The notes under the pieces: generated by a model
What the model was told of the DNA's origin: nothing
Databases searched by the model: none
The model's input: the letters and a program-made list of their open reading frames with translations, nothing else
Position numbers and translations under genes: made by a program
Source of the DNA: Burkholderiales bacterium
GTDB lineage: Bacteria > Pseudomonadota > Gammaproteobacteria > Burkholderiales > SG8-41
Direction: 5' to 3'
Assembly (NCBI GenBank): GCA_026125585.1
Contig: JAHCLD010000001.1
Span: forward strand, 1,433-65,432
Length of the DNA stretch: 64,000 bases
In this document: one piece after another, positions 3,807 through 55,711 of the stretch
How the letters are laid out: every line of letters begins with the position of its first letter
Numbering within the stretch: the stretch's first letter is position 1

Positions 3807-3993
3807 TATGGGGGCTCCGGTAGCGGCCATTATCCGGTTTTTGGCGCGCTTTTGAAAGGCGATCGCGGCGCGGCGGGCGGCAGCCGCCGCGTCAACTCTG
3901 CGATAATTCCGCCCAATCCGGCGCCGAACGGGCAATGTGTTCCGGCAGTGCGTTCCGCAACCGCCTTTTTCACCCACGCTGCATGGCCTCCGC

Positions 3994-6726
3994 ATGAAAA
4001 CCCTGCTACTCGTCGACGGTTCTTCCTATCTTTATCGCGCATTCCATGCGATACGCGAACTGAGCACCAGCCGCGGCGAGCCGACCAACGCCATCTACGG
4101 CGTGCTCAACATGCTGCGCCGGCTGCACAAGGACGTGCCGGCGGAGTACAGCGCCTGCGTGTTCGATGCCAAGGGCAAAACCTTCCGCGACGATCTTTAT
4201 CCCGAATACAAGGCCAACCGGCCGCCGATGCCCGACGAGCTGGCTTCGCAGATCGCGCCGCTGAAGGAGGCGATCGTCGCGATGGGCTGGCCGCTGCTCG
4301 AGGTCGAAGGCGTGGAGGCCGACGACGTGATCGGCACCCTGGCGCGCCAGGCCGAGCAGGCCGGCATGCGGGTGGTGATCTCCACCGGCGACAAGGACAT
4401 CACGCAACTGGTGACGCCGCAGGTGACGCTGGTCAACACCATGTCCAACGAAACGCTGGATGTGGCCGGCGTCGAAAAAAAATTCGGCGTACCGCCGGAA
4501 CGCATCATCGATTACCTGACACTGATCGGCGACAGTGTCGACAACGTGCCGGGCGTGCCGAAGGTCGGGCCGAAGACCGCGGTGAAATGGCTGGCGCAGT
4601 ACGGCACGCTGGACGACATCGTCAGGCACGCGCCCGACATCGGCGGCGCGGTCGGCCAGAACCTGCGCGATGCGCTGGACTGGCTGCCGCAGGCGCGGGA
4701 ACTGCTGACCATCCGCTGCGACGTGCCGCTGCCGGTGCGGCTGCAGGACCTGGCGCCGCAGCCGCAGGACCGGGAGAAACTCGCGACGCTGTTCGACCGT
4801 TTCGAATTCAGGACCTGGCGCCGCGAGCTCGACGGCGGCGAGGCCGCGGTGCCCGGGGCATCCGCCGCTACGCCGGCGGAAACGGCGCCGGTGCAGGCGG
4901 AGGCGCCCCAGCCTCGATCTCCGCGGCGTTATGAGACCGTGACCACGCCCGGGGCGCTGGCGCAATGGCTGGCGCGCATCGAAGCCGCGCCGCTGACCGC
5001 GGTGGATACCGAAACCACCAGCCTCGATGCGCTGGCGGCGGAACTGGTCGGCATTTCGCTGGCGGTGGAACCGGGGCAGGCTGCCTACATACCGGTGGGT
5101 CATGTCTATGCCGGCGCGCCGGAGCAGTTGCCGCGCGACCAGGTGCTGGCCGCGCTGAAACCCTGGCTGGAAAATCCGCAGCGCGCCAAGCTCGGCCAGC
5201 ACTTCAAGTACGACATGCACGTGTTCGCGAATTACGGCCTGCGGGTGGCCGGCGTGGCCCACGACACGCTGCTGGAGTCCTATGTCCTGGAAAGCCACCA
5301 GCGGCACGACATGGATTCCATGGCGCAAAGAATTTTATCAATAAAAACAATAACTTACGATGAAGTCACGGGCAAGGGTGCGAAACGCATCGGTTTCGAG
5401 CAGGTGGCCGTCGAGCACGCTGCCGAATATGCCGCCGAAGACGCGGACGTCACGCTGCAACTGCACCGCGCGCTGCAGCCGCGCGTCGCGGCGGACGCGA
5501 AACTGAACCATATCTACACCGACATCGAGATGCCGGCGATGCAGGTGCTGTACGCGATGGAATGCAACGGCGTGCTGCTCGACGAGAAACTGCTGGGCGA
5601 ACTGTCGGCGGAGTTCGGCGCCAAGATGCTCGACATCGAGAAGCGCGCGCACGAGCAGGCCGGCCAGCCGTTCAACCTCAGTTCGCCGAAACAGATCCAG
5701 GAAGTGCTGTTCGAAAAGCAGGGTCTGAAGCCGGTCAAGAAAACGCCTGGCGGGGCACCCTCCACCGACGAGGAATCGCTCGAAGAACTGGCGCTCGACC
5801 ACCCGCTGCCGAAGCTGATCCTCGACTACCGCGGGCTGGCGAAACTGAAGTCGACCTACACCGACAAGCTGCCCGGCATGGTCAACCGCAGGACCGGGCG
5901 CGTGCACACCAGCTACGGCCAGGCCACCGCGGTGACCGGGCGGCTGGCGAGCAGCGATCCCAACCTGCAGAACATCCCGATCCGCACCGCGGAAGGCCGG
6001 CGCATCCGCGAGGCCTTCGTCGCGCCGCCCGGCGCGCAGATCGTGTCGGCCGACTATTCGCAGATCGAGCTGCGCATCATGGCGCACATTTCGAAGGACG
6101 AAAGCCTGCTCGGGGCCTTCGCCGCCGGCGAGGACATCCACCGCGCGACCGCGGCGGAGATTTTCGGCGTCGACCTCGCCGCCGTCGACAGCGAGCAGCG
6201 GCGCTACGCCAAGGTCATCAACTTCGGCCTGATCTACGGCATGTCGGCCTTCGGGCTCGCCCGCCAGCTCGGCATCGAGCGCGCCGCCGCGCAGCAGTAC
6301 ATGGACCGCTATTTCCAGCGTTATCCGGGCGTCGCCGAATACATGCGCGTCACCCGCGAGCAGGCGCGCGAGCAGGGCTACGTCGAAACCGTGTTCGGCC
6401 GCCGGCTGTGGCTGCCGGAAATCCGCAGCAGCAACGCAGCGCGGCGCCAGGGCGCCGAACGCGCGGCGATCAACGCGCCGATGCAGGGCACCGCCGCCGA
6501 CCTGATCAAGCTGGCGATGATCGCCGTGCAGCGCTGGCTGACCGAAGAAGGGATGCAGTCGAAGCTGATCATGCAGGTGCACGACGAGCTGGTGCTGGAA
6601 GTGCCGGACGCGGAACTGGCTGCGGTCAAATCCGGACTGACGCGCCTGATGGGCGGCGTCGCCGAACTGGCGGTGCCGCTGCTGGTGGAAGTCGGCGCCG
6701 GTCCGGACTGGGACAAGGCGCACTGA
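3994..6726 (+). CDS. polA: DNA polymerase I
   Basis: ORF 3937..6726 trimmed to MKTLLLVDGSSYLYRAFHA (5' nuclease N-terminus). Has a 3'-5' exo region and polymerase motifs DYSQIELRIMAH, RRYAKVINFGLIYG, QVHDELVLE. Confidence 0.95.
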   Translation: MKTLLLVDGSSYLYRAFHAIRELSTSRGEPTNAIYGVLNMLRRLHKDVPAEYSACVFDAKGKTFRDDLYPEYKANRPPMPDELASQIAPLKEAIVAMGWPLLEVEGVEADDVIGTLARQAEQAGMRVVISTGDKDITQLVTPQVTLVNTMSNETLDVAGVEKKFGVPPERIIDYLTLIGDSVDNVPGVPKVGPKTAVKWLAQYGTLDDIVRHAPDIGGAVGQNLRDALDWLPQARELLTIRCDVPLPVRLQDLAPQPQDREKLATLFDRFEFRTWRRELDGGEAAVPGASAATPAETAPVQAEAPQPRSPRRYETVTTPGALAQWLARIEAAPLTAVDTETTSLDALAAELVGISLAVEPGQAAYIPVGHVYAGAPEQLPRDQVLAALKPWLENPQRAKLGQHFKYDMHVFANYGLRVAGVAHDTLLESYVLESHQRHDMDSMAQRILSIKTITYDEVTGKGAKRIGFEQVAVEHAAEYAAEDADVTLQLHRALQPRVAADAKLNHIYTDIEMPAMQVLYAMECNGVLLDEKLLGELSAEFGAKMLDIEKRAHEQAGQPFNLSSPKQIQEVLFEKQGLKPVKKTPGGAPSTDEESLEELALDHPLPKLILDYRGLAKLKSTYTDKLPGMVNRRTGRVHTSYGQATAVTGRLASSDPNLQNIPIRTAEGRRIREAFVAPPGAQIVSADYSQIELRIMAHISKDESLLGAFAAGEDIHRATAAEIFGVDLAAVDSEQRRYAKVINFGLIYGMSAFGLARQLGIERAAAQQYMDRYFQRYPGVAEYMRVTREQAREQGYVETVFGRRLWLPEIRSSNAARRQGAERAAINAPMQGTAADLIKLAMIAVQRWLTEEGMQSKLIMQVHDELVLEVPDAELAAVKSGLTRLMGGVAELAVPLLVEVGAGPDWDKAH
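5326..5364 (+). repeat. AT-rich box copy A, embedded in frame inside polA
   Basis: caa aga att tta tca ata aaa aca ata act tac gat gaa. Shares 22 identical nt (5336-5357) with copy D (42693-42714). Confidence 0.8.
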
Positions 6727-15475: not shown

Positions 15476-15783
15476 GGGCGGAAAAAGCCTGATTATAAGT
15501 CGGGAGTCATCGGTCGGGAGTGCGGGCGCACCCGGAAGCAGACCCCGTTGCGACGACGGAAGTTCCTTGCTGCCGGGGCGGCCGGAATCGCGGCGGCGGA
15601 CTGTTGCGGGCGGACATGCGCGCGGCCGGTTCGCGCGCCGGCCGCGTTCGCGGATCATCGGGCGTGCATGCCGTCGCGCAGCGCCGGCCCGCCGCCGCAG
15701 CGCGCCGTGTTCTCGACGGCGGCAGGTAACCGCCCCGTGCTTCGATGCCTGCCGGCCTGGGCATGCGATCTCCCGCTAAAATT

Positions 15784-15820
15784 AAAAATATTGTTTAAAA
15801 ACAAATACTTATAATTCTCC
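15784..15820 (+). repeat. AT-rich box copy B
   Basis: aaaaatattgtttaaaaacaaatacttataattctcc, immediately upstream of the hsp20 sigma-32-type promoter. Confidence 0.8.
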
Positions 15821-15839
15821 TTTCGATGTGGCGCGCACT

Positions 15840-15868
15840 CTTGAAAACCATGCCGGGACACCCATATT
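15840..15868 (+). promoter_or_regulatory. sigma-32 (RpoH)-type heat-shock promoter
   Basis: CTTGAAA - 14 nt - CCCATATT matches the CTTGAAA-N13-15-CCCCATNT consensus. It lies 49 nt upstream of the hsp20 ATG. Confidence 0.65.
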
Positions 15869-15916: not shown

Positions 15917-16345
15917 ATGGTCAATGTTACCCGTTTCACCCCGTTTGACGATTCGTTCGACGAGCTGCTGCGCGGTTTTTTCGTGCGCCCGATGGCTTTT
16001 GAAGGCGCGCCGCAGGCCGCGCAGGCGATCCGCGTCGATGTGCGCGAGAGCGAAAACGATTATGTCGTGCACGCCGAGATTCCCGGCGTGAAAAAGGAAG
16101 ACATCCACGTCACCATCGACGCCGAGCAGATCGCGATCAGCGCGGAGACGCGCAACGAACGCGAAATCAAGGAAGGCGAGCGCGTGCTGCGCGCCGAGCG
16201 CCACTACGGCAAGGTCTATCGCGCCTTCACGCTGGGCACCCCGGTGGATGAAGAGAAGGCGACCGCGAAATATTCGGACGGCGTGCTGGAGCTGACGCTG
16301 CCGAAAAAGGTGGCGGTCACCGCGAAACGCCTGTCCATCAACTGA
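15917..16345 (+). CDS. ibpA: small heat-shock protein (Hsp20/alpha-crystallin family)
   Basis: ATG at 15917 preceded by AAGGAG. Alpha-crystallin domain (DVRESENDYVVHAEIPGVKKEDI ... YSDGVLELTLPK). Confidence 0.9.
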   Translation: MVNVTRFTPFDDSFDELLRGFFVRPMAFEGAPQAAQAIRVDVRESENDYVVHAEIPGVKKEDIHVTIDAEQIAISAETRNEREIKEGERVLRAERHYGKVYRAFTLGTPVDEEKATAKYSDGVLELTLPKKVAVTAKRLSIN

Positions 16346-22516: not shown

Positions 22517-24048
22517 GCAAACTCGATCAGCGGGCGTCCCGTCATTTCGGCGGGTTGCGGCAATCCCATCACCGCCAGCAGCGTCGGCGCGACATCCTGC
22601 AGCGCGCCGCCGTCTGCAATGCGTGCCTTGCGCCCGATATAGAGCAGCGGCACCAGGTTCAGGGTGTGCGCCGTGTGCGGCTGCCGCGATTCCGGGTCGC
22701 GCATGGTTTCGGCATTGCCGTGGTCCGCGGTGATCAGCACCTCGCCGCCGATGCCCTGCATCGCCTCGACGACGCGGCCGATGCATTCGTCGAGCACCTC
22801 GATGGCGCGGGTCGCCGCGGCGAGGTTGCCGGTGTGCCCGACCATGTCGCCATTGGCGTAGTTGCAGACGATGGCGTCGTAACGGCGCGATTCGATGGCC
22901 TGCACCAGCTTGTCGGTGACCTCGCGCGCGCTCATTTCCGGCTGCAGGTCATAGGTGGCCACTTTCGGCGAGGGCACCAGCACGCGGTCCTCGCCGGGGT
23001 AGGGGGTTTCCACGCCGCCGTTGAAGAAATAGGTCACGTGGGCGTACTTCTCGGTCTCGGCGATGCGCAGCTGGTGCAGTCCCTTTTTCGACAGGTATTC
23101 ACCGAAACCGTCGCGGATCTGCTGGGGCCCGAACGCGGCCGGGATATGGCTGAAGTCCTCGCCGTAGCCGGTCAGCGTGCAGTAGTAGGCGAGTTTCGGC
23201 ATGCGTTTGCGCGCGAAACCCGCAAAAGCCTGGTCGGTGAGCGCCGCTGTCAGCTGGCGGGCGCGGTCGGAGCGGAAATTCATGAATACAACCGCGTCGC
23301 CGTCGTTGATGCGCACCGGCGTCGTGCCGGCCGGGACGATTGCCGTCGCTTTCACGAATTCGTCGGTTTCGCCGCGGGCATAGGCCGCCTTGAGGCCGGC
23401 CAGCGCATCGGCTGCGGTGAACGGTGCCGTTCCATCGACGATCAGGTCGTAGGCCGACTCGACCCGGTCCCAGCGCTGGTCGCGGTCCATCGCGAAGTAA
23501 CGACCGCAGATCGATGCGATGCGCGCATTGCCGAGGGCGCGGCATTTCCGCTCCAGTGCCGCCAGCGAGGCTTCCGCGTTTTGCGGCGGCGTGTCGCGGC
23601 CGTCGAGGAAGGCGTGCACGCAGACCTGTTTCGCGCCCTTCGCGGCGGCGAGATCGAGCAGAGCGTGAATCTGCGATTCGTGGCTGTGCACGCCGCCGGT
23701 GGAGAGCAGGCCGAGGACATGCAGCGTGCCGCTCCCGGCCTTGCGGACCGCGGCCTCGAGCACCGGGTTTTCGGCGAACTCCCCGGTTTCGATGGCATGT
23801 TCGATCTTGGTGTAGTCCTGGTACACCACCCGGCCGGCGCCGATGTTCATGTGGCCGACTTCGGAATTGCCCATCTGCAGCGCCGGCAATCCGACCCATT
23901 TTTCCGAGGCGTCGATGAGGGTGTGCGGGCAGGTTTCCCACAGGAAATTCCAGTGCGGTTTGCGCGCCTGGCAGATGGCGTTGTCGTCGCAGTCCTCGCG
24001 GTGGCCGAAACCGTCGAGAATGACCAGCAATACCGGTGTTATCTTCAT
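22513..24048 (-). CDS. gpmI: 2,3-bisphosphoglycerate-independent phosphoglycerate mutase
   Basis: 511 aa. PVLLVILDGFG, MGNSEVGHMNIGAGR and ITADHGNAE motifs. Confidence 0.95.
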   Translation of the reverse strand: MKITPVLLVILDGFGHREDCDDNAICQARKPHWNFLWETCPHTLIDASEKWVGLPALQMGNSEVGHMNIGAGRVVYQDYTKIEHAIETGEFAENPVLEAAVRKAGSGTLHVLGLLSTGGVHSHESQIHALLDLAAAKGAKQVCVHAFLDGRDTPPQNAEASLAALERKCRALGNARIASICGRYFAMDRDQRWDRVESAYDLIVDGTAPFTAADALAGLKAAYARGETDEFVKATAIVPAGTTPVRINDGDAVVFMNFRSDRARQLTAALTDQAFAGFARKRMPKLAYYCTLTGYGEDFSHIPAAFGPQQIRDGFGEYLSKKGLHQLRIAETEKYAHVTYFFNGGVETPYPGEDRVLVPSPKVATYDLQPEMSAREVTDKLVQAIESRRYDAIVCNYANGDMVGHTGNLAAATRAIEVLDECIGRVVEAMQGIGGEVLITADHGNAETMRDPESRQPHTAHTLNLVPLLYIGRKARIADGGALQDVAPTLLAVMGLPQPAEMTGRPLIEFA

Positions 24049-24130
24049 GATTTCAATGGATTTTTCAGAATATTGTGATGCAGTATAATTCTAAATCATT
24101 TCAACAGACTTGGGCGGTACCGGGAGATTC

Positions 24131-29530: not shown

Positions 29531-29557
29531 CGGATATTCGCGGTGCAGGACGTGCGT

Positions 29558-29573: not shown

Positions 29574-29634
29574 TTGTTAGCATTGCCTGCATTGTCTGTT
29601 TCACATCGTCTGCTTCATTTTGAGCGAAAACCGA

Positions 29635-31341
29635 ATGGGCCGTCCTGAAAAAATCCGTCTTGGCGAAATCCTGGTCCAGCAGAAATTGCTGACCGAGGAG
29701 CAATTGAAAAGCGCCCTCGAGGAGCAGAAAAAGACCGGGCGCCGCCTCGGCCACGTGTTCATCGAAAAGGGCTTCATCACCGAGGAGCAGATTTCGAAGG
29801 CGCTGGCGCGCCAGCTCGGCGCGGCCTACATCGACCTCAAGCATTACAACATCAAGCGCGACGTCATCGCCAGGCTGCCGGAAACCCAGGCGCGGCGTTT
29901 CCGCGCCATCGTGCTCGAGGACAGGGGCCATGCCTACATGGTCGGCATGGCCGATCCCACCGACCTGACTGCCTACGACGAGATCGCGCGCGTGCTGAAG
30001 CGCGACATCGACCTGGCGGTGGTCACCGAGACCGAACTGCTGCGGGTGATCGACCGCAGCTATCGCCGCACCGAGCAGATCGCCGGGCTGGCCCAGGAGC
30101 TCGAAGCCGACATCGGCGACTCCGGCGCCGTCGATTTCGGCGCCCTGGCGACGACGCCGGGCCTCGAGGAAGCGCCGGTCGTCAAGCTGCTGCAGACCGT
30201 GTTCGAGGACGCCACCCAGGCGCGGGCGTCCGACATCCACATCGAGCCGCAGGACAAGCGCCTGCAGATCCGTTTCCGCATCGACGGCGTGCTCCATCTG
30301 CAGACGGAGACCGATGGCAAGATCGCGTCTGCCGTGGTGCTGCGCCTGAAGCTGATGTCGGGCCTGGACATCGCCGAGAAGCGCATGCCGCAGGACGGCC
30401 GCTTCGCGATCAAGGTGCGCAACAGCGCGATCGACGTGCGGATTTCGACGATGCCCACGCAGTACGGCGAATCGGTGGTGATGCGCCTGCTGAACCAGGG
30501 CAGCGGCATCCTCGGCCTCGACAACATCGGCATTCCCGCGGACATGCTGGCCAAGGTGCGCGAGGTCATCCACCGCCACAGCGGGATGATCCTGGTGACC
30601 GGCCCCACCGGCAGCGGCAAGACCACCACGCTGTACGCGGCCCTTAACGAACTGAACACGCCGGAGCGCAAGATCATCACCGTCGAGGATCCGGTCGAAT
30701 ACCGCCTGCCCGGCATCAACCAGGTGCAGGTCAACGACAAGATCGAACTGACCTTCGACCGCGTGCTGCGCTCCGCGCTGCGCCAGGATCCGGACGTGGT
30801 GCTGGTCGGCGAGATGCGCGACGAGCAGACCGTGGAAACGGGCCTGCGCGCGGCGATGACCGGCCACATGGTGTTCTCCACGCTGCATACCAACGACGCG
30901 TCGAGCACGCCGATACGGCTGCTCGACATGGGCGCGCCGCGCTACATGGTCGCGCTGTCGCTGCAGCTGGTGATCGCCCAGCGCCTGGTGCGGGTGATCT
31001 GCGAAAGCTGCATCGAGGATTACGAACTGCTACCGAACGAGCACGAATTCCTCCGCAGCGAACTGGGGGACGAGGTCGACCGCCATGTCTACAAGCGCGG
31101 CCGCGGCTGTTCGCACTGCAACGGCACCGGCTTCAGCGGCCGTACCGGCGTTTATGAAATGCTGGAAATGTCCAAGCCCGTGGTCGAGGCGGCGAACCAG
31201 GAGGACATACAGAAGTTCATCCAGGTCGCGCGCCAGCAGCTCGCCGGGCGCACCCTGCGCCACCATGCCGCGCAGATCGTCGCCGCCGGCAGAACCACGC
31301 CGGACGAGGCGATGCGCGTCAGCAGCCAGCTCGCCGACTGA
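29635..31341 (+). CDS. mshE: MSHA-type pilus extension ATPase (GspE family with N-terminal MshEN-like domain)
   Basis: N-terminus RLGEILVQQKLLTEEQLKSALEEQKKTGRRLGHVFIEKGFITEEQISKALA. Walker A GPTGSGKTT. Tetracysteine CESC...CSHC. Confidence 0.9.
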   Translation: MGRPEKIRLGEILVQQKLLTEEQLKSALEEQKKTGRRLGHVFIEKGFITEEQISKALARQLGAAYIDLKHYNIKRDVIARLPETQARRFRAIVLEDRGHAYMVGMADPTDLTAYDEIARVLKRDIDLAVVTETELLRVIDRSYRRTEQIAGLAQELEADIGDSGAVDFGALATTPGLEEAPVVKLLQTVFEDATQARASDIHIEPQDKRLQIRFRIDGVLHLQTETDGKIASAVVLRLKLMSGLDIAEKRMPQDGRFAIKVRNSAIDVRISTMPTQYGESVVMRLLNQGSGILGLDNIGIPADMLAKVREVIHRHSGMILVTGPTGSGKTTTLYAALNELNTPERKIITVEDPVEYRLPGINQVQVNDKIELTFDRVLRSALRQDPDVVLVGEMRDEQTVETGLRAAMTGHMVFSTLHTNDASSTPIRLLDMGAPRYMVALSLQLVIAQRLVRVICESCIEDYELLPNEHEFLRSELGDEVDRHVYKRGRGCSHCNGTGFSGRTGVYEMLEMSKPVVEAANQEDIQKFIQVARQQLAGRTLRHHAAQIVAAGRTTPDEAMRVSSQLAD

Positions 31342-32577: not shown

Positions 32578-33093
32578 ATGAGCCGGAACGGGAGACAGCG
32601 GCAGCGCGGCTTTTCGTTGCTGGAACTGGCGGTGGTCGCGGTGGTGCTGTCGGTGCTGCTCGGCGTTTTCCTCGAACGGCTGACGTTCTATCAGGAAGCG
32701 GCGGAGCGCGCGCGCTTCGAGGCCACGCTGCAGATCTACAAGACCGCCCTGCAGATCCGCCTCGCGGAACTGATCCTCGAACGCAGGGAAGGCGAGGCCC
32801 GCGCGCTGGAAGTCGAGAATCCGACACGCTGGCTGTCGGAAAGGCCGACAGATTACGGCGGGAGCTACCCGGCGCGGCCGGAGCCGGGCACCTGGTATTT
32901 CGAGGAGGGCACGCGGGAACTGGTATATGTCGCCAACTCGGCGCGGCGGCTGGCGGTGGAGCCGCGTAACGGCATGAAACAACTGCGTTTTGCGGTGAAA
33001 GTGGTCTATCAGGATGTGATTGTCAGCGGCCGGCCGATCCACAGCGTTGCGGGCATCGGCCTGCAACCCGCGGTGGCCTACCGATGGCCATGA
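32578..33093 (+). CDS. mshF: MshF-like protein with prepilin-type N-terminus
   Basis: [17 protein letters not shown] class III signal. Position after mshG. Confidence 0.6.
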
Positions 33094-33111
33094 CTGGGGC
33101 CAAAATTACCC

Positions 33112-33127
33112 TGGCACTACTTTTGCT
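33112..33127 (+). promoter_or_regulatory. sigma-54 promoter upstream of first pilin gene
   Basis: TGGCAC-TACTT-TTGCT, 43 nt upstream of the ATG at 33170. Confidence 0.75.
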
Positions 33128-33169
33128 GTATTATCAACAAGATGCTTCGTAATTCGTGAGAAAAATCAC

Positions 33170-33649
33170 ATGAACAAACGCTACCAGAACGGTTTCACGC
33201 TGATCGAACTGATCGTGGTGATCATCATTCTGGCGATCCTGGCGGCGACCGCGCTGCCGCGGTTTGCCAACCTGCAGGTGCAGGCGCGCATCGCCAAGCT
33301 GAACGGCGCGCTGGGTGCCATGAAAGGCGCTTCCGCGCTGGCCCACGCGGCCTGCCTCGCGACCACGCCGCAATGTACGACGCCTCTGGTGATGGAAGGG
33401 GTCAATGTGACGATGATCCATACTTATCCGACGGCGGATGCCGGAGGCATTGTCACCGCCGCAGGCATCAACGCAGGCCCGAATTCTGATGACGGCTACA
33501 ACACGGAACTCGGCGGTCCGGCGGCCGGCGCGACCCTGCGCATGATGGTCATGGGCAATAACCCGCAGACCTGCAGTTTCACGTATACGGCGCCGACGGC
33601 GCCCAATACGTCGCCGACGTTCAGCCCCTTGGACACGTCGGGCTGCTGA
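33170..33649 (+). CDS. mshB: type IV pilin (MshB position)
   Basis: [32 protein letters not shown]. Cys pairs and a C-terminal Cys. Confidence 0.8.
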
Positions 33650-36090: not shown

Positions 36091-36584
36091 AAATCAGGTC
36101 ACTCATCTCTGTCGCGCGCATGCGCGGTTTCAGCCTGGTGACCGGGATCTTCCTGCTGGTCGTGCTGTCGGCGCTGGGCGCGTTCATGGTGATGTTCACC
36201 GGCCTGCAGCAGAACACGGTCCAGGTCGATATCCTCGGCGTGCGCGCCTATTACGCGGCCCGTGCCGGACTGAACTGGGCGATGTACCGGGCGCTCGATC
36301 CCGATAATCCCAGCGCGACTGCGGCCGCCTGCCCCGTCGGCACGATCGCGCAGGGTGCCCTCGCCGGTTCGCTGGCGCCATTTTCGGTGACCGTGGAATG
36401 CGAGCCCTTCGATGCCACCGAAGCGAACCGGAACATCCGCGTGTACCGGATCACCGCAACCGCCTGCAATCAGGCGGTATGCCCCGGCACACCCGGCAAC
36501 GCCTACGTGGAGCGCCGCGTCGTCTCGACGCTGGCGAAGTGCAAGGATCCCTCGGCGCCATCGCCTTTCGAGTGTGGATTGTGA
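36087..36584 (+). CDS. mshP: pilin-like protein lacking Glu5 (MshP position)
   Basis: ATGA overlap with mshO. ARMRG/FSLVTGIFLLVVLSALGAFMV. Confidence 0.6.
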   Translation: MKIRSLISVARMRGFSLVTGIFLLVVLSALGAFMVMFTGLQQNTVQVDILGVRAYYAARAGLNWAMYRALDPDNPSATAAACPVGTIAQGALAGSLAPFSVTVECEPFDATEANRNIRVYRITATACNQAVCPGTPGNAYVERRVVSTLAKCKDPSAPSPFECGL

Positions 36585-36621
36585 AAATATTAAATAAAAA
36601 CAAATATTTATATAAATCTCC
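36583..36621 (+). repeat. AT-rich box copy C
   Basis: gaaaatattaaataaaaacaaatatttatataaatctcc. Begins inside the mshP stop codon. Confidence 0.8.
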
Positions 36622-42570: not shown

Positions 42571-42680
42571 ACATGGCGAGAACGATCCCGGCGCGCGGTG
42601 TTCTGATTGCGGGGCCGTCCGATGGCGGCGGCCCGCGATGGCGGAATGCAAGGATCCAGCGGCTGCGTATTGTCACTGAC

Positions 42681-42723
42681 GATATAAAAAAATATCAATA
42701 AAAACAATAACTTAATTTGATAC
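42681..42723 (+). repeat. AT-rich box copy D
   Basis: gatataaaaaaatatcaataaaaacaataacttaatttgatac. Ends 1 nt before the ATG at 42724. Confidence 0.8.
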
Positions 42724-45700
42724 ATGGTATCTGCAGCTCAAAGCTGCCCAAGCTTTATGAACATGAAAATGCTTGCTGCTCGGAATGATTCGGAAGGCCG
42801 GACCGGCGAACGCGGCTTGGCTGCGTGCTTTCTGTTTCTGTTGTTCGCGGCGATGCTGGTCTTCGGCTTGGCCGGAGCGAACGACGTGCGGGCGGCGGCG
42901 CCGACGTTTCAGGCGGCGGGCACGCAGCAGAGCGGCACGGGCAATGTCACCGTGCCGTGGCCTGCGCACGTGGCGGGTGATGTCGCGCTGCTCTTCATCG
43001 AGAGCACGGGAGGACAGGCGGCCAATCTCGGGACCGCCAATGGATTCGTTGCGGTTGCCAACAGTCCCCAGAATACGGGCACCGGCACAAACGGGACGCG
43101 ACTGACCGTGTACTGGGCGCGTGCCACGTCGGCTGCCATGGCTTCTCCGGTGGTGACCGATCCGGGCAATCACGTCTATGCCCGCATCCTGACCTATCGT
43201 GGCGTCATCGGTGCTGGCAATCCGTGGGACGTGACCGGTGGTGGCGTCAAGGCCACAGCCAGCACTTCAGTCACGGTGACGGGTGTGACGACAACGGTGC
43301 CGGATACGCTGATTGTGCAGGCCGTGGCGCGCGACAACGATTCGGCAGCGGCGGCATTCGGTACCCCGACCAATGCCAATCTGACAGGAATCACCGAACG
43401 CTCTGATGCGGGCACGACCTCGGGCAATGGCGGCGGTATCGGCATCTGGGATGGCGTCAAAGCAACTGCGGGTGCGACCGGAAACACGACTGCCACGGTA
43501 ACCAGCTCCATCAACGCATTCCTGACCATCGCGCTCAGGCCGCCACCGCCGAACTATTACAGCCGCAACGGCGGCGGCAACTGGTCGGCGACCGCGACCT
43601 GGAGCAACACGGCGTGTAACGGCGCGGCAGGCGCGACGATCCCGCATGCCGACGCGACGGTCACCATCTGCAACAACGACACGGTCACGCTGAACCAGAA
43701 TGCGACCATTGCCGAGTTGATCGTGGGCAGCGGGAACAACAATTCCACACTGACGCATACGGGGAGCAATGCGCTGACGACCGGCGGTGTCACGTTCAAC
43801 CGGGGCACCGGCGGCACCAAGGCCTGGAACGTCAACGCCGGCAGTGCAACGGTCAACGGCAACGTGGTGATGGGCAGTTGGACCAACGGCATTGCGCGGA
43901 TCCAGTTGACCAGCGGCACGCTGGACATCAACGGCGACCTGGGTTTCTTCAACAACACGCTGGGGCAGGCCGTCATCGATGCCAGTGGCGGCGCGGCAAA
44001 CATCTTCCTGTCCGGCGCGATGACCGATCTCGGCAATGCCCAGATCCTGCCGGGCACGGCCAGCACCTTCACCTACGACGGTGGCAACCAGAGCGTGTGG
44101 CTGGGCGTCGGCGGCATCAGTTACTACAACCTGACGCTCGCCGGCAGCGGCACCAAGCAGCAGCAGTACGGCGGCGCGGCCACGGTCGGCGGCGCGACGA
44201 CTGTCAATGCCGGCGTGACGTTCACCAACTCCGGGGCCGTCACTTTTTCCGGGGCCTTCGTCAACAACGGCACGACCAACGCCAGCCAGACCAACGATTA
44301 CCAGGGCAGCTTCACCAACGCCGGTACCTATACCAGCAGCGCCGGCGGCGGGCAGAACTACCGCGGCAATTTCAGCAACAGCGGCACGTTCAATGCGGGC
44401 AGCGCGCAGCACCGCTTCAACGGCAGCGCGCTGCAGACGCTGACGGGCGCGACCACCTTCCAGAACCTGGAAGTGAACAACAGCGCGGGGCTGGTCATCA
44501 ACAGCAACGTGACGGTGACGACGCAGGCGACACTGACCGGCGGCGTGGTCACGACCGGCGCCAACGTGTTCATCGTGCAGCAGACGACCTGGAGCGGGGT
44601 GAGCCGCGGCAGCGGCTATATCAACGGCAATCTGCGCCTGCGCATGCCGACCGGCGGCACGTCGCGCGTGTTCGACGTCGGCGGCGCGAACGGCTATCGT
44701 CCGGTGACGGTGGCGTTCGCCAATATCACCACGCAGGGCGATCTGACCGTTTCGGTCAGCGACCCCGGCGGCGATCATCCGGATATCGGTGCCTCCTCGA
44801 TCGATCCGGCAAAAAGCGTCAATCGCTGGTGGACGCTGACCAACGGCGGCATCGCGTTCAGCGGCAATTACAGCGTCGTCTTCAATTACCTGGCGGGCGA
44901 TATCGACGGCGGTGCCAATCCCGCGCAGTTCAACATCCAGCGTTTCAGCGGCGGGACTTGGAACGATGTCACGACCGGCAACCGCACCGGCACCAGCATC
45001 GAGGGCACGGGGCTGAGCGCCTTCGGCGCGTTCGCCATCGGGCAGCGCCTGATCCTGACCACCTGTCCCGCCGGCGGAGAGCTGATTCCCGGACTGTTCG
45101 GCTCGTACTACAACGTCACCGGCGGCTTCCCGCCGGCGCGCCCCTCGGGATTGCCGAACGGCACGCGCGCCGACGGCCCGGTGGACTTCAACTGGGCCGC
45201 CGCCGCGCCCGGCGTGAGCGGCATCGGTGCCAACCAGTTTTCGGTACGCTGGGACGGCTACATCTATGTCACGGTCAGCGGCAACTACCAGTTCCAGACC
45301 GAGTCGGACGACGGCGTGCGGCTGTGGGTCAACGACATGACGACGCCGGTGATCGACAACTGGACCGACCATTCCGCGGCTACGGACACCAGCGCCAACG
45401 TGGCATTGACGGCGGGACAGTTCTACCCGATCCGGCTGGAGTTCTACGAGAACGGCGGCGACGCGGTCATCCGCCTGCGCTGGCGCTTGCCCAGCAGCGG
45501 TTCCTATGTCGCGATTCCCGCGGGCCCGGTGCCGACGCCGGGGGCGGGGCTGTACCACTGCAGCGAGCAGCAGGTCCCGGGCCTGCTGGCGCATTACGCC
45601 ATGGACGAAGCCGCGTGGAACGGCACGACCGGCGAAGTCAAGGATGCGAGCGGCAACAACCGCCACGGCACCGCGCTCGCGCCCAACGGGCCGGCCACGG

Positions 45701-48351
45701 CCAACACGGCGCCCGCGCGCCCGGGCAATCCCGGCACCTGCGGCTATGGCGTGTTCGACGGCAGCAACGATTACGTCACCGTGCCGAATCTGCAGACGAT
45801 CCTCGGCGGCACGGCGAGCCTCGCGTTCTGGATCCGGACGACGCAGGGCGGCAACAACACGGCCTGGGAGGCGCCGGGCGTGACCGGCGTGGAGGAGAGC
45901 GGCGGCGGCAACGACGTGTTCTGGGGATTCCTGCGCGGCAACGGCCGCATCGCGATCCAGAAGGGGAACGGCGCTTACGCGGAATCGGCGGCGGCGGTCA
46001 ACAACGGCAACTGGCAGCACGTGGTGCTGACACGCAATGCCACGAGCGGCGCGGTGCAGGTGTATCTGAACGGCAGCCTGTCCGGCTCCGCGACCGGCGA
46101 GACGGGCACGGTGACCACGGCGTTCTCGAGCATCGGGCGGATCGAGGACACCGGCGGCACGCCCATGTACTTCAACGGCCAGATCGACGAGATGCGTGTT
46201 TACGACCGTGTGCTGACCACCGCCGAGGTTGCCGTCGTTTACGATCTCAAGCGTCCCTGCGACGTGGAGGCCCTCGACCATATCCGCATCACACACGGCA
46301 GCGGCAGCGGCCTGACCTGCAATCCGTCGACGCTGACGATCCGCGCCTGCGCGAATGCCGATTGCACGATCGAATACACGGGCGGCGTGGCCGGATCGCT
46401 GACCGCGACCGGCGCGACGACGAACTTTGCGGGCGGCGCTGGTTTTGCGATTGCCTCGGGTTTGGGGGCCGTCACCAAGGACATCCAGGTGACGGCGACG
46501 CCCAGCGCGATGATCGGCGCGACCAGCATCAGTCCAGCACCGGTCAACCCGGTGGCCTGCAATTTTGGCACGCCCGCCTGCACCTTCACGGCGGCGGATT
46601 CGGGTTTCGTGTTCGACGTGCCGGATCATGTGTCGGACACGATCCAGAGTTCCATTACCATCTCCGCCGTGCGCAAGGACGATACGAGCCAGCGCTGCGT
46701 GCCGGCATTCCAGAGCACGACCAAGACGGTCGGTTTCTGGTCGAACTACCTGAATCCGGCCACCGGTTCGCTCGCGGTCAGCGTCAATGGCAACAACATT
46801 TCCGGAACCAGTCCCGGAACCGGCATGAATCTGAACTTCAACGCCTCCGGCGAGGCGACGATACAGGTGCGGTATCTCGACGTCGGCCGGATGCGGCTGC
46901 ACGCGCGCCACGACGGTTCGGGTATCGCCGGGGGGCTGGTGATGCTGGGGCAGGATGAATTCGTCAGCAAACCCGCAGGCTTCGTGATTTCGGGCATACA
47001 GAGAACCGCCGACAGTTTCGCCAATCCGGCGGCGGCCAATGCCGCCGGCGCGGTGTTCATCCGCGCCGGCGAAAACATCACGCTGACCGTGACTGCGCGC
47101 AATGCCAGCAACAACGCGACGCCCAACTTCGGCAGGGAGTCGCCCGCGGAAGGCGTGCAACTGACATCCGCGCTGGTCGGCGGGCTCGGGCTCAGCGCCA
47201 ATCCCGCGCTTGGCAATGGCCTGATCGCGGGCGCCGCGTTTACCGCCGGATCGGCTACGGCGACCAACGTGACCTGGGGCGAGGTCGGCATCATCACCCT
47301 CACGCCGCACCTCGGCGACGGCGATTACCTCGGTACCGGCGACGTCATCGGCACGGCGAGCGGCAATGTCGGGCGTTTCATCCCGCACAATTTCGCGGTT
47401 GCGTTCAACGATCCGGCGTTCGCGACGGCCTGCACCGCGGGCGGATTCACCTATGTCGGACAGCCTTTCGTTTACGCCACGGGGATGTCGCCGGTGCTGA
47501 CGGCCACCGCGCGCAATCTTGCCGGGGGGACGACGCTGAATTACCGGGGCACTTCGCCGGCGTCCCAGGCGTTTTTCAAGATCACCAACGGCTCGCTGAC
47601 CGGCAAGGCATATTCCGCGGCCAGCGGCACGCTCGATGTCAGCGGAATCACCGGGACGGACCCCGTCATCGTGGACAACGGCAACGGCACGGCGACCCTG
47701 ACGTTCAACTCCGGCAGCGGGCTGGCGTTCACGCGCGGCAATCCCGTGTCGCCGTTCGATGCCGAAATTTCGCTGGCCATCAACGTGCTCGATACCGACG
47801 GTGTCGCGTATTCGTCGAATCCGGCGAGATTCGGACAGGCCAGCGCCGGCAACGGCATCGATTTTCCGGACGGAAAGGCCATGCGTTACGGCCGTGTGCG
47901 GCTGACGGGCGCCAGCGGATCGCAGGTGTTGCCGCTCCGGGTGCCTTTCGAGGCCCAGTACTGGACAGGCACGTTCTTTGCAACGAACACCCTCGATACC
48001 TGTACAACACTGAGCGCAGGCAACGTGGGCATGGGCAATTACATCGGCAACCTGAACGCAGGCGAAACCACCGTGACATCGATCACGGCGCTATCCGCGG
48101 GACGCGGCACCATCGTCCTGGGAGCGCCCGGAGCGGGCAACAACGGCAGCGTCGATCTTGCCTTCAACCTCGGCGATGGCACAGTTGCTGCGGCCTGCCC
48201 GTCTTTTGCGCCGAATGCCGGCGCGGGCAACCTGCCGTGGCTGCGCGGCCAGTGGTGTGGCGCCGCCCATGACCGGGATCCGTCGGCCAGAGCGCGCTTC
48301 GGCATACGCGGCGGCGGCGACGAGCGGATTTATATACGTGAAAATTATTAA
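42724..48351 (+). CDS. mshQ: giant MshQ-like pilus-associated protein 2 (novel N-terminal module, beta-helix-like repeats, PA14 domain about 45091-45525, LamG about 45583-46250, MshQ-type C-terminal region)
   Basis: 1875 aa. PA14-like GLFGSYYNV...FSVRWDGYIYV...YQFQTESDDGVRLWVND...YPIRLEFYENGG. LamG hallmark QIDEMRVYDRVLT. Start could also be 42757/42763. Confidence 0.8.
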   Translation: MVSAAQSCPSFMNMKMLAARNDSEGRTGERGLAACFLFLLFAAMLVFGLAGANDVRAAAPTFQAAGTQQSGTGNVTVPWPAHVAGDVALLFIESTGGQAANLGTANGFVAVANSPQNTGTGTNGTRLTVYWARATSAAMASPVVTDPGNHVYARILTYRGVIGAGNPWDVTGGGVKATASTSVTVTGVTTTVPDTLIVQAVARDNDSAAAAFGTPTNANLTGITERSDAGTTSGNGGGIGIWDGVKATAGATGNTTATVTSSINAFLTIALRPPPPNYYSRNGGGNWSATATWSNTACNGAAGATIPHADATVTICNNDTVTLNQNATIAELIVGSGNNNSTLTHTGSNALTTGGVTFNRGTGGTKAWNVNAGSATVNGNVVMGSWTNGIARIQLTSGTLDINGDLGFFNNTLGQAVIDASGGAANIFLSGAMTDLGNAQILPGTASTFTYDGGNQSVWLGVGGISYYNLTLAGSGTKQQQYGGAATVGGATTVNAGVTFTNSGAVTFSGAFVNNGTTNASQTNDYQGSFTNAGTYTSSAGGGQNYRGNFSNSGTFNAGSAQHRFNGSALQTLTGATTFQNLEVNNSAGLVINSNVTVTTQATLTGGVVTTGANVFIVQQTTWSGVSRGSGYINGNLRLRMPTGGTSRVFDVGGANGYRPVTVAFANITTQGDLTVSVSDPGGDHPDIGASSIDPAKSVNRWWTLTNGGIAFSGNYSVVFNYLAGDIDGGANPAQFNIQRFSGGTWNDVTTGNRTGTSIEGTGLSAFGAFAIGQRLILTTCPAGGELIPGLFGSYYNVTGGFPPARPSGLPNGTRADGPVDFNWAAAAPGVSGIGANQFSVRWDGYIYVTVSGNYQFQTESDDGVRLWVNDMTTPVIDNWTDHSAATDTSANVALTAGQFYPIRLEFYENGGDAVIRLRWRLPSSGSYVAIPAGPVPTPGAGLYHCSEQQVPGLLAHYAMDEAAWNGTTGEVKDASGNNRHGTALAPNGPATANTAPARPGNPGTCGYGVFDGSNDYVTVPNLQTILGGTASLAFWIRTTQGGNNTAWEAPGVTGVEESGGGNDVFWGFLRGNGRIAIQKGNGAYAESAAAVNNGNWQHVVLTRNATSGAVQVYLNGSLSGSATGETGTVTTAFSSIGRIEDTGGTPMYFNGQIDEMRVYDRVLTTAEVAVVYDLKRPCDVEALDHIRITHGSGSGLTCNPSTLTIRACANADCTIEYTGGVAGSLTATGATTNFAGGAGFAIASGLGAVTKDIQVTATPSAMIGATSISPAPVNPVACNFGTPACTFTAADSGFVFDVPDHVSDTIQSSITISAVRKDDTSQRCVPAFQSTTKTVGFWSNYLNPATGSLAVSVNGNNISGTSPGTGMNLNFNASGEATIQVRYLDVGRMRLHARHDGSGIAGGLVMLGQDEFVSKPAGFVISGIQRTADSFANPAAANAAGAVFIRAGENITLTVTARNASNNATPNFGRESPAEGVQLTSALVGGLGLSANPALGNGLIAGAAFTAGSATATNVTWGEVGIITLTPHLGDGDYLGTGDVIGTASGNVGRFIPHNFAVAFNDPAFATACTAGGFTYVGQPFVYATGMSPVLTATARNLAGGTTLNYRGTSPASQAFFKITNGSLTGKAYSAASGTLDVSGITGTDPVIVDNGNGTATLTFNSGSGLAFTRGNPVSPFDAEISLAINVLDTDGVAYSSNPARFGQASAGNGIDFPDGKAMRYGRVRLTGASGSQVLPLRVPFEAQYWTGTFFATNTLDTCTTLSAGNVGMGNYIGNLNAGETTVTSITALSAGRGTIVLGAPGAGNNGSVDLAFNLGDGTVAAACPSFAPNAGAGNLPWLRGQWCGAAHDRDPSARARFGIRGGGDERIYIRENY

Positions 48352-48374
48352 TCAAAACAATGGATTAACTTTCC
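48340..48374 (+). repeat. AT-rich box copy E (degenerate)
   Basis: gaaaattattaatcaaaacaatggattaactttcc. Its 5' part encodes the last codons and the stop of MshQ-like 2. Confidence 0.6.
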
Positions 48375-48410
48375 CGATCGTGCGGCGTCGTGCAAATACG
48401 CCGTAAGTCT

Positions 48411-55637: not shown

Positions 55638-55659
55638 GAATAAGGTCTTCCGCGATAAT

Positions 55660-55698
55660 GGATATATATAAGTATTTGTTTTTATTGATATTTTTAAG
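55660..55698 (-). repeat. AT-rich box copy F (inverted orientation)
   Basis: Minus strand reads cttaaaaatatcaataaaaacaaatacttatatatatcc. Lies in the comF/bioB divergent intergenic region. Confidence 0.8.
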
Positions 55699-55711
55699 AA
55701 AGCAGCCCGTC

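Follow-up and report, generated by a model that had tools for sequence, protein, structure and literature searches.

The run of AT-rich codons within polA, the gene for DNA polymerase I, belongs, in frame, to a family of AT-rich duplex-DNA motifs (about 40 bp; referred to here as the box) that is specific to one clade of uncultured Burkholderiales. This patch arose once, at the base of the clade, through point substitutions at a pre-adapted site. Since then it has been preserved at the nucleotide level in about 20 species in spite of their codon bias. Because it is retained base for base despite rare codons and three amino-acid changes, we infer that the DNA sequence itself is read by something. 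The reader has not been identified. The positions of the patch and of the related copies in the 64-kb window, i.e., the whole stretch of 64,000 nucleotides that was analyzed, are given in Table 1.

Table 1. Coordinates of polA, its in-frame box and the intergenic box copies in the 64-kb window
Feature	Position	Strand	Basis
polA (DNA polymerase I), host gene of the in-frame box	3994..6726	+	ORF 3937..6726, likely ATG 3994; Pfam 5_3_exonuc_N, 5_3_exonuc, DNA_pol_A_exo1, DNA_pol_A; gap-free vs E. coli Klenow
In-frame AT-box under DNA-level constraint (aga att tta tca ata aaa aca ata act tac gat)	5329..5361	+	clade GC3 and codon-window count
15-nt box core AAAAACAATAACTTA, encoding KTIT(Y)	5343..5357	+	perfect core match; synonymous spelling possible from ancestral KTITYD
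22 nt identical to intergenic copy D (42693-42714)	5336..5357	+	exact-match search
Box copy B, between dacC-like (-) and hsp20 (+), 28 nt upstream of a sigma32-type -35 element	15776..15822	+	PWM and core matches
Box copy C, before Gly_rich_2 / first MshQ-like gene of the MSHA-type pilus cluster	36575..36621	+	PWM and core matches; Pfam neighbors
Box copy D, between two giant DUF6701 (MshQ-like) genes	42679..42725	+	PWM, core and exact match; Pfam neighbors
Probable degenerate box copy E (core tcaaaacaatggatta), upstream of the sigma70-like promoter (48411-48438) of a PilM/MshI-like gene	48332..48378	+	by eye, in PWM training set
Box copy F, between comF-like (-) and bioB (+)	55658..55704	-	PWM and core matches

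The in-frame patch in polA

The patch under constraint is 33 bases long. The segment proposed in the initial annotation (5326-5364) is one codon wider on each side, with caa in front and gaa behind, in the polA frame. Its count of 12 A/T-ending codons out of 13 is borne out by the sequence and the coordinates, and no other 13-codon window among the 18,813 in the 54 genes of the 64-kb window reaches 12 (per-window P 1.5e-9; 3e-5 expected over all 18,813). Given the peptide, this codon string has a probability of about 1.7e-15 under local codon usage. AGA, TTA, TCA, ATA, ACA and ACT are indeed rare, with shares of 1.7%, 0.6%, 1.8%, 4.6%, 3.8% and 4.0% of their synonymous sets, respectively. To speak of 13 consecutive rare codons is an overstatement, however, since TAC, GAA, GAT and AAA are common. 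The identity of 22 nt with intergenic copy D is exact, as had been claimed. In the gap-free Klenow alignment, KTITFEE of E. coli Pol I does lie opposite KTITYDE, but not at the exonuclease/polymerase junction where it had been placed. Both the Pfam matches and the Klenow alignment put the patch within the 3'-5' exonuclease domain, ahead of the YAAEDADVTLQLH (Exo III) motif.

The patch is kept in 21 related polA genes, which form one monophyletic clade, and its GC3 there is 0.10. In 60 outgroup polA genes, ERHLGVKTITYDE is encoded with ordinary codons (GC3 0.78). Codon by codon, GC3 in the clade is 0.00-0.05 at 5329-5355 and 0.19-0.33 at 5356-5364, compared with 0.40-0.92 in the 60 outgroups, and the next-lowest 13-codon window in polA has a GC3 of 0.55. 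The patch codons AGA, AAA, ACA and A[CG]T are 100% conserved in the clade; the identity of flanking synonymous codons is 0.3-0.5. The comparison of third positions across relatives, which had been proposed as a check, thus finds them near-invariant in 21 genomes whose other synonymous sites have diverged. Relatives that encode the same peptide with ordinary GC-rich codons and lack the motif, which would have refuted the claim, do exist, but only among distant relatives. The motif is clade-specific.

In alignments with E. coli and 80 relatives there are no indels at the patch, and to this extent the idea that the motif was written by codon choice rather than inserted holds. The change was not purely synonymous, however. 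The motif core (18 nt) is spelled within the core peptide KTITYD without amino-acid change, but the left half carries three amino-acid replacements, acquired stepwise along the tree (RHLGV to RHLSI to RILSI). E. coli has RWLKH opposite this half in the Klenow alignment, and the replaced residues are thus variable. At the DNA level the left half reads AGAATTTTATCAAT in polA, compared with AAAAATATCAAT in the intergenic consensus. The core claim, that a DNA motif has been written into polA and is held by selection at the nucleic-acid level, is supported both by the invariance of third positions and by membership of the motif family. Where DNA or RNA had been left as alternatives for this selection, the answer is duplex DNA rather than RNA, since intergenic copies are found in both orientations with respect to transcription and no RNA structure is present.

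Distribution and context of the box family

The motif has the consensus AAAATAT-N4-6-AAAAACAAWWAYTTA in an AT island of about 42 nt. More fully, it consists of AAAATAT, 4-6 variable bases, AAAAACAA-WW-A-Y-TTA and then an AT tail. It is asymmetric, about 40 bp long, and made up of two blocks with flexible spacing. The GC content of the AT island is 4-10%, in a 57-66% GC genome. Perfect occurrences of the 15-nt core AAAAACAAWWAYTTA number five in the 64-kb window, where 0.03 would be expected. The membership of copy E is uncertain because it has no core match within 2 mismatches, yet it is in the PWM training set. Each of the five intergenic copies in the window precedes a gene of the same orientation; hsp20, comF and genes of the MSHA pilus are among these genes. 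Three of the boxes cluster within the pilus gene cluster.

In 421 kb of clade DNA we found 35 cores, whereas the 981 kb from outgroups contain none. High-GC metagenome contigs (52-66% GC) add about 50 copies; by a composition-based estimate, the chance expectation over the whole metagenome scan is well below 1. Overall, one box is found about every 25-30 kb; the richest source has one per 9 kb and the others one per 70 kb, an eight-fold difference in density. No complete genome is included in these figures. Nearly all boxes are intergenic, with a coding share of about 5-20%. The coding copies other than that in polA lie on either strand, in leuS and in the genes for a TPP-dependent enzyme, a CoxM-like flavoprotein and MgsA/RarA, and such copies are commoner in the box-richest lineage. 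Relative to Pfam matches, those in the TPP enzyme and MgsA fall between domains, that in leuS at the end of the editing domain, and that in the CoxM-like protein inside a domain.

Retention differs by site, from 21/21 at polA and 9/9 at hsp20 to 8/19 at uvrD-3', where box turnover, decay and presence/absence polymorphism are seen. Box B is at the orthologous position in every clade genome with hsp20 in range and is absent from outgroups. Its distance to the hsp20 sigma32 promoter takes two values, one helical turn apart, between two genome groups, which hints at a cis role at that site. The sequence downstream of box B is not conserved. A ComF homologue at one metagenome locus (L160) is likewise preceded by a box, at a distance of 18 nt.

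Across the copies, the gene context is tandem in 29 cases, divergent in 14 and convergent in 8, and the ratio of box strand to gene strand is 13:16. GC skew is positive at 12 of 28 loci, i.e., there is no polarity, and a replication-oriented signal of the Chi/KOPS/Ter type was rejected on this basis. In one convergent case (L153) the stop codon of a PTPase gene lies inside the box and a TctC gene ends 11 nt beyond it; in another (L181) the box is located 3 nt after prfA. Boxes also occupy gaps of 40 nt within housekeeping operons (e.g., asd-leuB) and sites between convergent stop codons. Their placement tracks intergenic length and not promoters, terminators or strand. No functional theme emerged among the neighbors, with 147 Pfam families in 114 neighboring proteins, and no cognate or reader gene could be found by adjacency, as only housekeeping genes surround the clustered boxes. 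The suggested link to genome-maintenance genes was therefore not upheld, either by the genes with coding copies listed above or by these intergenic neighbors. Each copy seen is single, with no inverted box pairs, and the metagenome copies show no symmetry or conserved sequence beyond the AT island. There is no box hairpin (RNA fold z = -1.0), and the 64-kb window gave 0 Rfam matches at the gathering score. An RNA element was rejected on these two grounds, together with the occurrence on either strand relative to transcription and the lack of conservation downstream of box B. A literature search found no description of the motif string or of AT-rich uptake signals in Betaproteobacteria.

Possible readers of the box

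An analogy with DNA uptake signals had been offered cautiously in the initial annotation. By genomic behavior, a box that works like an uptake signal is the best available fit. There are no uptake or transformation data, and we favor this analogy only tentatively, as unproven. The independence from context, seen in orientation, convergent gaps, unrelated neighbors and coding copies, implies a tag that is recognized as duplex DNA regardless of the local gene, strand and promoter. By analogy with USS and DUS, we suggest that the transformation machinery may include a DNA receptor, at the surface or in the periplasm, with a preference for box-bearing DNA. Better-matching alleles would then be taken up and recombined more often, and this drive would create boxes and preserve them at any site that tolerates them; most such sites would be in intergenic gaps, and coding DNA would qualify only if the encoded peptide permits. 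The polA copy would have no role in polA expression, and polA would be one of the few genes able to accommodate the tag.

Several properties of uptake signals are found in the box, i.e., lineage-specific over-representation, occurrence in both orientations, and coding copies formed through codon choice at tolerant residues whatever the gene function. The type IV pilus system and ComF encoded in the 64-kb window also speak for an uptake signal. Other properties are missing, namely a frequency of about 1 copy per kb (hundreds to thousands per genome) and the inverted terminator pairs of many USS and DUS; the density is 10-70 times below that in Haemophilus and Neisseria. The pilus cluster in the window is of the MSHA type, which also counts against this reading. 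MSHA-type pili are usually adhesins. Further points against it are the spacing pattern at hsp20, the three boxes in the pilus cluster, the unequal retention between sites, and the polA box itself, with its very rare codons and three replaced residues. It is doubtful, though possible, that the box is the uptake or self-recognition signal of a third independent system of DNA-uptake specificity, after the USS of Pasteurellaceae and the DUS of Neisseriaceae. This signal would be long and purely AT-rich, in a GC-rich lineage of uncultured Burkholderiales, and biased uptake with recombination would have had the strength to impose three amino-acid changes and twelve A/T-ending codons on Pol I and to maintain them in about 20 species.

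Nearly as likely as an uptake signal, and likewise no more than a possibility, is a site bound by a chromosomal protein specific to the clade (nucleoid-associated, architectural, insulator or occlusion-type, for example). About 100-500 high-affinity sites per genome would be maintained by ordinary selection for a cis role or for chromosome structure, and the polA copy would be a site that could evolve where the peptide allowed. The copy number that follows from the density fits factors of this kind, for which such numbers are typical. The asymmetric motif with its two flexibly spaced blocks is also consistent with a chromosomal protein, as are the long-term positional conservation at polA and hsp20, the shift by one helical turn in front of hsp20, and the three boxes in one gene cluster. 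However, no cognate gene is near the boxes, and their placement follows intergenic length and is blind to promoters, terminators and strand. A cis role is hard to imagine in the 40-nt gaps of housekeeping operons or between convergent stops. With a near-invariant core of 15 nt and a second block, the motif carries far more information than a few hundred sites would need, and selected sites in assorted coding regions on both strands would be unusual. Compared by eye with consensus motifs, the box fits none of IHF (no TTR element), Fis, FNR/CRP, Fur, LexA, PhoP, ArcA, NarL, Ter, hix or dif.

A promoter, or an operator of a pilus/competence regulon, was our initial hypothesis because all five intergenic copies in the window are upstream and co-oriented, including those at the MSHA pilus genes and comF. 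The polA copy would then drive a 3' transcript, a shorter Pol I isoform or the modulation of polA. Many copies end in a TAnnnT hexamer (TATAAT, TATGAT or TACGAT), and GAT is preferred as the last codon of the patch. We now consider this unlikely and have dropped it, since the orientation of some 50 independent copies is random, eight are in convergent contexts and their neighbors have no theme. Only 12 of 45 metagenome copies (about a quarter, counted by eye) retain the T at the end of the hexamer, there is no -35 element, and a consensus scan gave no promoter at 5000-5700. The hsp20, mshI and mshE genes have sigma32, sigma70 and sigma54 promoters of their own, downstream of or apart from the boxes. 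An internal Pol I isoform was rejected because the sequence after the patch offers no start codon with a Shine-Dalgarno sequence that is specific to the clade.

Mobile or copied DNA, whether inserted as a MITE/REP-like element, copied from an intergenic box by a short gene conversion or acquired from an AT-rich donor, is very unlikely, although the motif has high information content and near-identical dispersed copies, including the 22 nt shared with copy D, and is polymorphic in presence at uvrD-3'. The length of polA is unchanged relative to 60 outgroups and E. coli. There are no terminal inverted repeats or hairpins, no target-site duplication at the uvrD-3' site, and no transposase was noted among the box neighbors. 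A single copy event predicts neither the difference of the polA left half from the intergenic consensus nor its stepwise assembly. A phage or plasmid origin was rejected as well: the box is not enriched in viral contigs, where only 2 of 58 matches are in high-GC DNA, and plasmid matches are chance hits in AT-rich taxa.

The least credible alternative is a translational device, in which the run of AGA, TTA, ATA (twice), TCA and ACA slows ribosomes for the co-translational folding of Pol I or creates a rare-tRNA dependence as in bldA/TTA. These codons are among the rarest in the 64-kb window and the run is conserved in 21 genomes, but what is conserved is the exact nucleotide string, common to non-coding copies (22/22 with copy D), and not rarity itself. 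The alternative rare codons CTA and TCT occur just once each in the 21 genes (L011 and L020), and the positions that vary (ATA/ATT and ACT/AGT) are the motif's own degenerate positions. In addition, the patch is inside a domain and not at a domain boundary, and other coding copies are antisense to their gene.

Whatever its reader, the patch is a clean natural case of a DNA-level signal that overrides codon bias and protein conservation in a core replication/repair gene, and its ancestral, intermediate and finished states are all visible in living lineages. Because the phylogenetic boundary is sharp, with the box in one clade and not in its sister group, phylogenetic profiling is a feasible way to search for the reader protein. 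Should this prove to be a DNA-uptake receptor, uptake specificity would reach beyond the two families studied for decades, to uncultured bacteria of the environment. Should it be a chromosomal protein, this would be a rare case of binding sites selected within coding sequence. Either way, genome annotators should not automatically take AT islands here as promoters or foreign DNA.

Comparison with known systems

REP/BIME, ERIC and MITE sequences are, like the box, short dispersed intergenic elements that are frequent at gene ends and in convergent gaps. They are palindromic or have terminal inverted repeats, are mobilized by a transposase (RAYT), form RNA or DNA hairpins and do not lie in frame within genes. 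The box differs from them in that it is unstructured and asymmetric and arose in polA by substitutions. The high-affinity sites of IHF, Noc (NBS) and SlmA (SBS) are likewise well defined, number tens to hundreds on a chromosome and bear no relation to gene function. Those of IHF are AT-rich and asymmetric, with a length of about 35 bp; NBS and SBS are palindromes. Some box copies contain WATCAA, but the TTR element of the IHF consensus is missing from the box. To our knowledge, none of the IHF, NBS or SBS sites is conserved in frame at a cost in codon usage.

NTS/SRM repeats share with the box that both are dispersed motifs. They are read by Ssn GIY-YIG single-strand nucleases and modulate transformation from hundreds of dispersed copies, with a paired cognate gene (PMC11893778). 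They are GC-rich hairpins of about 30 bp clustered around particular genes and ssnA, whereas the box has no hairpin or associated gene and its AT island is 4-10% GC, and we rejected them as an explanation. The GIY-YIG family is also absent from the top-25 Pfam list of the 114 neighbors and from the 10 proteins around clustered boxes.

USS and DUS are non-palindromic, are present in similar numbers in both orientations, are under-represented in coding DNA and are only weakly related to gene function (PMC2817400). Coding regions accommodate USS through the choice of codons and through amino-acid changes that the protein tolerates, with a preference for residues of low conservation, and the copies per genome number 1,471 in Haemophilus and 1,892 in Neisseria (PMC2817400). 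Like the Pasteurellaceae USS (9-bp core with AT-rich flanks, about 30 bp), the box is non-palindromic, dispersed, present in both orientations, lineage-specific, similar in length and found in coding DNA. It differs in being entirely AT-rich in a GC-rich genome, with a longer core (15 nt), and 10-70 times sparser. In H. influenzae, 65% of the USS are coding, far more than for the box, which also lacks the inverted terminator pairs. Moreover, the box is from uncultured Burkholderiales with no known competence.

A bias of DUS toward genome-maintenance genes has been reported and disputed (PMC2817400, PMC3630211); no such enrichment is seen for the box. The DUS of Neisseriaceae also differ from it in being short and GC-containing, at about 2,000 per genome and often in terminator pairs. 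The receptor for DUS is the minor pilin ComP. The box resembles these signals (10-12 nt, with lineage 'dialects') in being clade-specific in Betaproteobacteria, in its lineage-variable copy number and in its conservation in core genes.

The polA patch and its history

The GC content of the window is 66.5%, and it falls to 13% in one 30-nt window at an AT-rich patch inside polA. Twelve of the 13 codons of this patch end in A or T, which is unique among the 18,813 13-codon windows in the 54 genes of the window; the next-ranking ones come from ORF calls over-extended into upstream regions. The codons AGA, TTA, TCA, ATA, ACA and ACT each account for 0.6-4.6% of their own synonymous set, and the probability of the codon string given the peptide is ~1.7e-15. 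This confirms the observation in the initial annotation, and the 22 nt that it found in common with intergenic copy D are exact. In counting thirteen rare codons it slightly overstated the case, since TAC, GAA, GAT and AAA are in common use. The E. coli Klenow fragment and the patch region align without gaps (AERWLKHKTITFEEIAGKG vs AQRILSIKTITYDEVTGKG), so nothing was inserted here. The central inference of the initial annotation, a DNA-level signal kept in frame, was correct. The patch had been placed at the exo/polymerase junction; it lies instead within the 3'-5' exonuclease domain, ahead of the YAAEDADVTLQLH motif. A consensus promoter scan called none at the patch, and no clade-specific start codon with a Shine-Dalgarno sequence was found 3' of it.

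We built a codon alignment of 80 polA loci, one per species, with 65-94% protein identity. The motif is found in 21 sequences (the window and the related loci L001-L017, L020, L028 and L030), which read aga att tta tca ata aaa aca at[at] a[cg]t ta[tc] ga[tc]. The remaining 60 have ERHLGVKTITYDE in ordinary codons, e.g. cgc cac ctc ggc gtg aag acc atc acc tac gac gag. Patch GC3 is 0.10 in the box-bearing clade vs 0.78 in these outgroups. Along polA in the clade, 13-codon windows have a mean GC3 of 0.77 (sd 0.10), the lowest after the patch being 0.55. AGA, AAA, ACA and A[CG]T do not vary in the patch, and the codons just outside have a pairwise synonymous identity of only 0.3-0.5. Thus, the proposal that third positions are conserved here beyond those of neighbouring codons holds. 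Relatives using ordinary GC-rich codons, which would have spoken against it, are the 60 outgroups only; 20 relatives keep the motif.

The box-bearing genomes are monophyletic in a neighbour-joining tree of PolA. On the deepest branches the core is complete and the left half is not: it reads aga cat tta tca ata in L015 and L017 and aga ctt ttg tct ata in L020. In the crown group it is aga att tta tca ata. The ancestral KTITYD (AAR ACN ATH ACN TAY GAY) allows the core AAAACAATAACTTATGAT to be spelled with synonymous changes only, and the left half needed RHLGV to become RILSI. Synonymous choice alone, as first supposed, therefore accounts for the core and not for the left half. Since E. coli has WLKH opposite the left half, these positions vary across bacteria. 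The polA copy is therefore of single origin, by substitutions at a pre-adapted site; it was improved stepwise and has been retained at the DNA level ever since.

Positions of the polA patch and of other features
Feature	Position	Strand	Detail
polA	3937/3994..6726	+	usual 5'-3' exonuclease, 3'-5' exonuclease and polymerase domains
polA patch codons	5326-5364	+	caa aga att tta tca ata aaa aca ata act tac gat gaa
22 nt shared with patch (copy D)	42693-42714		intergenic
sigma32-type promoter	15840-15867		CTTGAAA-N14-CCCATAT
hsp20	15917..16345
AT-rich non-box island	24035-24114		divergent promoter region at ~24.1 kb
MSHA-type cluster	29.6-55 kb		type IV pilus
Repeats	29495-29545		upstream of sigma54 promoter
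sigma54 promoter	29558-29573		-24/-12
MshE-like ATPase gene	29620..31341
AT-rich non-box island	33101-33179		upstream of pilin gene; contains ATCAACAA
ORF call	33020..33649		wrongly takes in the pilin-upstream island
leuS box			end of editing domain; KNSNKYNNL
TPP-dependent enzyme box	L139 3163-3177	antisense	between central and C-terminal domains; SQVFVFK
MgsA/RarA box		antisense	after AAA+ core; CKYLFLNNIFD
CoxM-like flavoprotein box	L116 8728-8742	antisense	SQVFVFK

A dispersed motif family

A common consensus unites six AT islands of the window; in one register it reads AAAATAT, 4-6 variable bases, (T)AAAAACAA-WW-A-Y-TTA and an AT tail. The 15-nt core has 5 perfect matches in the window vs 0.03 expected, and none with 1-2 mismatches. 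A weight matrix applied to the window and the 80 loci gave 32 matches, every one in the 21 box-bearing genomes, and the core pattern (≤1 mismatch) occurs 35 times in the 421 kb of clade DNA vs 0 times in the 981 kb from outgroups. We also scanned metagenomes, using a pattern built to leave out the polA version, and obtained at least 120 loci. Among the matches listed, their GC is bimodal (~50 in contigs of 52-66% GC, the others in AT-rich DNA), and each copy is a discrete ~42-nt island with nothing conserved beyond. By our own base-composition estimate, the chance expectation in high-GC DNA is far below one; of 58 viral matches, only 2 lie in such DNA.

We show that the polA patch belongs to a dispersed, clade-specific family of motifs independent of strand and local context, and that it is maintained at the level of duplex DNA. 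The initial annotation had allowed for selection on DNA or RNA; an RNA element is rejected, with no Rfam match, no RNA structure (z = -1.0) and random orientation relative to transcription. We infer that the box is recognised wherever it is located, and that the copy in polA does not serve polA itself. After ascertainment correction, box density is ~1 per 25-30 kb overall, with 1 per 9 kb in Ga0193752 contigs (~57% GC; metagenome loci L098, L109, L116, L139, L141, L148 and L151) vs 1 per 70 kb elsewhere. Box density seems to be specific to the lineage and may rise as genomic GC falls. A literature search turned up neither the motif string nor a description of this family.

The window also contains a complete MSHA-type cluster (MshE, MshG, pilins, MshI through MshL, MshM), with two giant DUF6701 (MshQ-like) proteins (1,595 and 1,875 aa; LamG and PA14 domains) and a Gly_rich_2 protein. 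Three AT-boxes lie within it, denser than the average. A textbook sigma54 promoter, TGGCACGccgcTTGCA, is found ~50 nt upstream of the gene for the MshE-like ATPase, which has an MshE-type c-di-GMP-binding domain. The adjacent GGATATCC / GCGATATCC / GGATATTC repeats could be enhancer-binding-protein sites.

Copies over time and inside other genes

Nine clade genomes have hsp20 in range, and every one of them carries box B at the orthologous site ahead of this gene. The flanks of the box are fully diverged between them, and outgroups have unrelated sequence there. Its spacing to the -35 element of the hsp20 promoter is 28-31 or 39-42 nt in the nine genomes, one helical turn apart, which hints at a cis role at this site; the two spacings could reflect regulatory phasing or a single indel event. 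The promoter itself is conserved in clade and outgroups. In the outgroup locus L043, an AT island (aaatttcaataaatcagcatgttaatt) with faint box likeness, ~130-160 nt upstream of hsp20 at the box B position, may represent a precursor or a distant dialect, or may be coincidental. Copy F has a counterpart in metagenome locus L160, 18 nt upstream of a ComF homologue. The uvrD-3' site shows turnover of boxes. In eight genomes the uvrD stop codon is formed by the first bases of a box, which is visibly decaying in L016 and L004; in eleven others, among them the window, a short, GC-rich gap takes its place. A second, unrelated family, a GC-rich palindromic REP/MITE-like element (CCGCCGATGAACGC ... GCGTTCATCGGCGG), adjoins the AT-box in the uvrD/BPSS1780 convergent gap, ~60-200 nt past the uvrD stop, in L003, L013, L014 and L016; L018 and L031 have related repeats.

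Beyond polA, boxes lie in four genes, with high-GC3 coding sequence on either side, and three of the four come from the box-richest source. The box reverse complement encodes the same SQVFVFK in two unrelated enzymes; this suggests that coding copies favour one antisense frame. Clustered boxes have housekeeping genes between them (asd, leuB, an MFS transporter, a lytic transglycosylase), and no candidate reader gene flanked by boxes was found among the genes around them. Among the matches listed, 114 box-neighbour proteins have 147 Pfam families and no theme, with only TctC frequent, a family heavily expanded in some Burkholderiales. With neighbours lacking a theme and the other coding copies in assorted genes, the suggested link to genome-maintenance genes is not supported.

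What may read the box

The box may be an uptake tag (USS/DUS-like); we propose this tentatively, by analogy and without uptake data. Box density is 10-70 times below that of Haemophilus or Neisseria, paired terminator copies were not seen, no competence is known in these organisms, and the box B spacings point to a cis role. Published uptake sequences tend toward preferred codons with little protein constraint (PMC2817400), and the polA patch is unlike them in both respects. Because this evidence is substantial, a site for a clade-specific chromosomal DNA-binding protein, itself doubtful, is almost as likely.

Each of the five intergenic copies of the window precedes a gene and has the same orientation as that gene (hsp20; a Gly-rich protein gene with an MshQ-like gene; a second MshQ-like gene; a PilM/MshI-like gene; comF), and many box copies end in TATAAT, TATGAT or TACGAT. 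The box was therefore first taken for a promoter or a pilus/competence operator. The larger sample of copies contradicts this, and we now consider it improbable. Among the matches listed, 29 intergenic copies are tandem, 14 divergent and 8 convergent, apparently in rough proportion to the intergenic DNA per class (set against typical bacterial values, not computed here). In the listed tandem contexts, 13 boxes are on the gene strand and 16 on the opposite strand, and the last T of the '-10-like' hexamer is retained in about a quarter of listed copies (12/45, by eye). The hsp20, mshI and mshE genes have their own sigma32, sigma70 and sigma54 promoters, respectively. Inspection bore out the convergent placements. 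In metagenome locus L153 a phosphotyrosine phosphatase gene located downstream of uvrB has its stop codon within the box, and the end of a convergent TctC gene is 11 nt further on; in L181 the box lies 3 nt past the end of prfA.

That the patch is copied or mobile DNA is very unlikely: a MITE or REP element is rejected by the absence of inverted repeats, target-site duplications and indels, and plasmid matches are due to chance. The NTS/SRM repeats on which Ssn nucleases act are GC-rich hairpins (PMC11893778) and are ruled out. A Chi, KOPS or Ter-like role is rejected for lack of GC-skew polarity (12/28 positive among the matches listed). A translational device built on the rare codons of the patch is hardly credible for a motif also found between genes. 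The remaining probability belongs to explanations not yet considered.

Of known classes, the DNA uptake sequence best matches the genomic behaviour of the box. Uptake sequences are non-palindromic, equal in both orientations, lineage-specific and under-represented in coding DNA; in genes they are placed at poorly conserved residues with a weak relation to gene function, and they are upheld by biased uptake and recombination, not per-site benefit (PMC2817400). Such a drive could have put a box in polA rather than in nearby intergenic DNA, since the peptide already fitted 12/18 core bases. It would also push amino-acid replacements through, fill arbitrary gaps with boxes and produce density differences between lineages. 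With its reader and function still to be shown, the box family behaves like a new variant of the uptake-sequence-type genomic tags.
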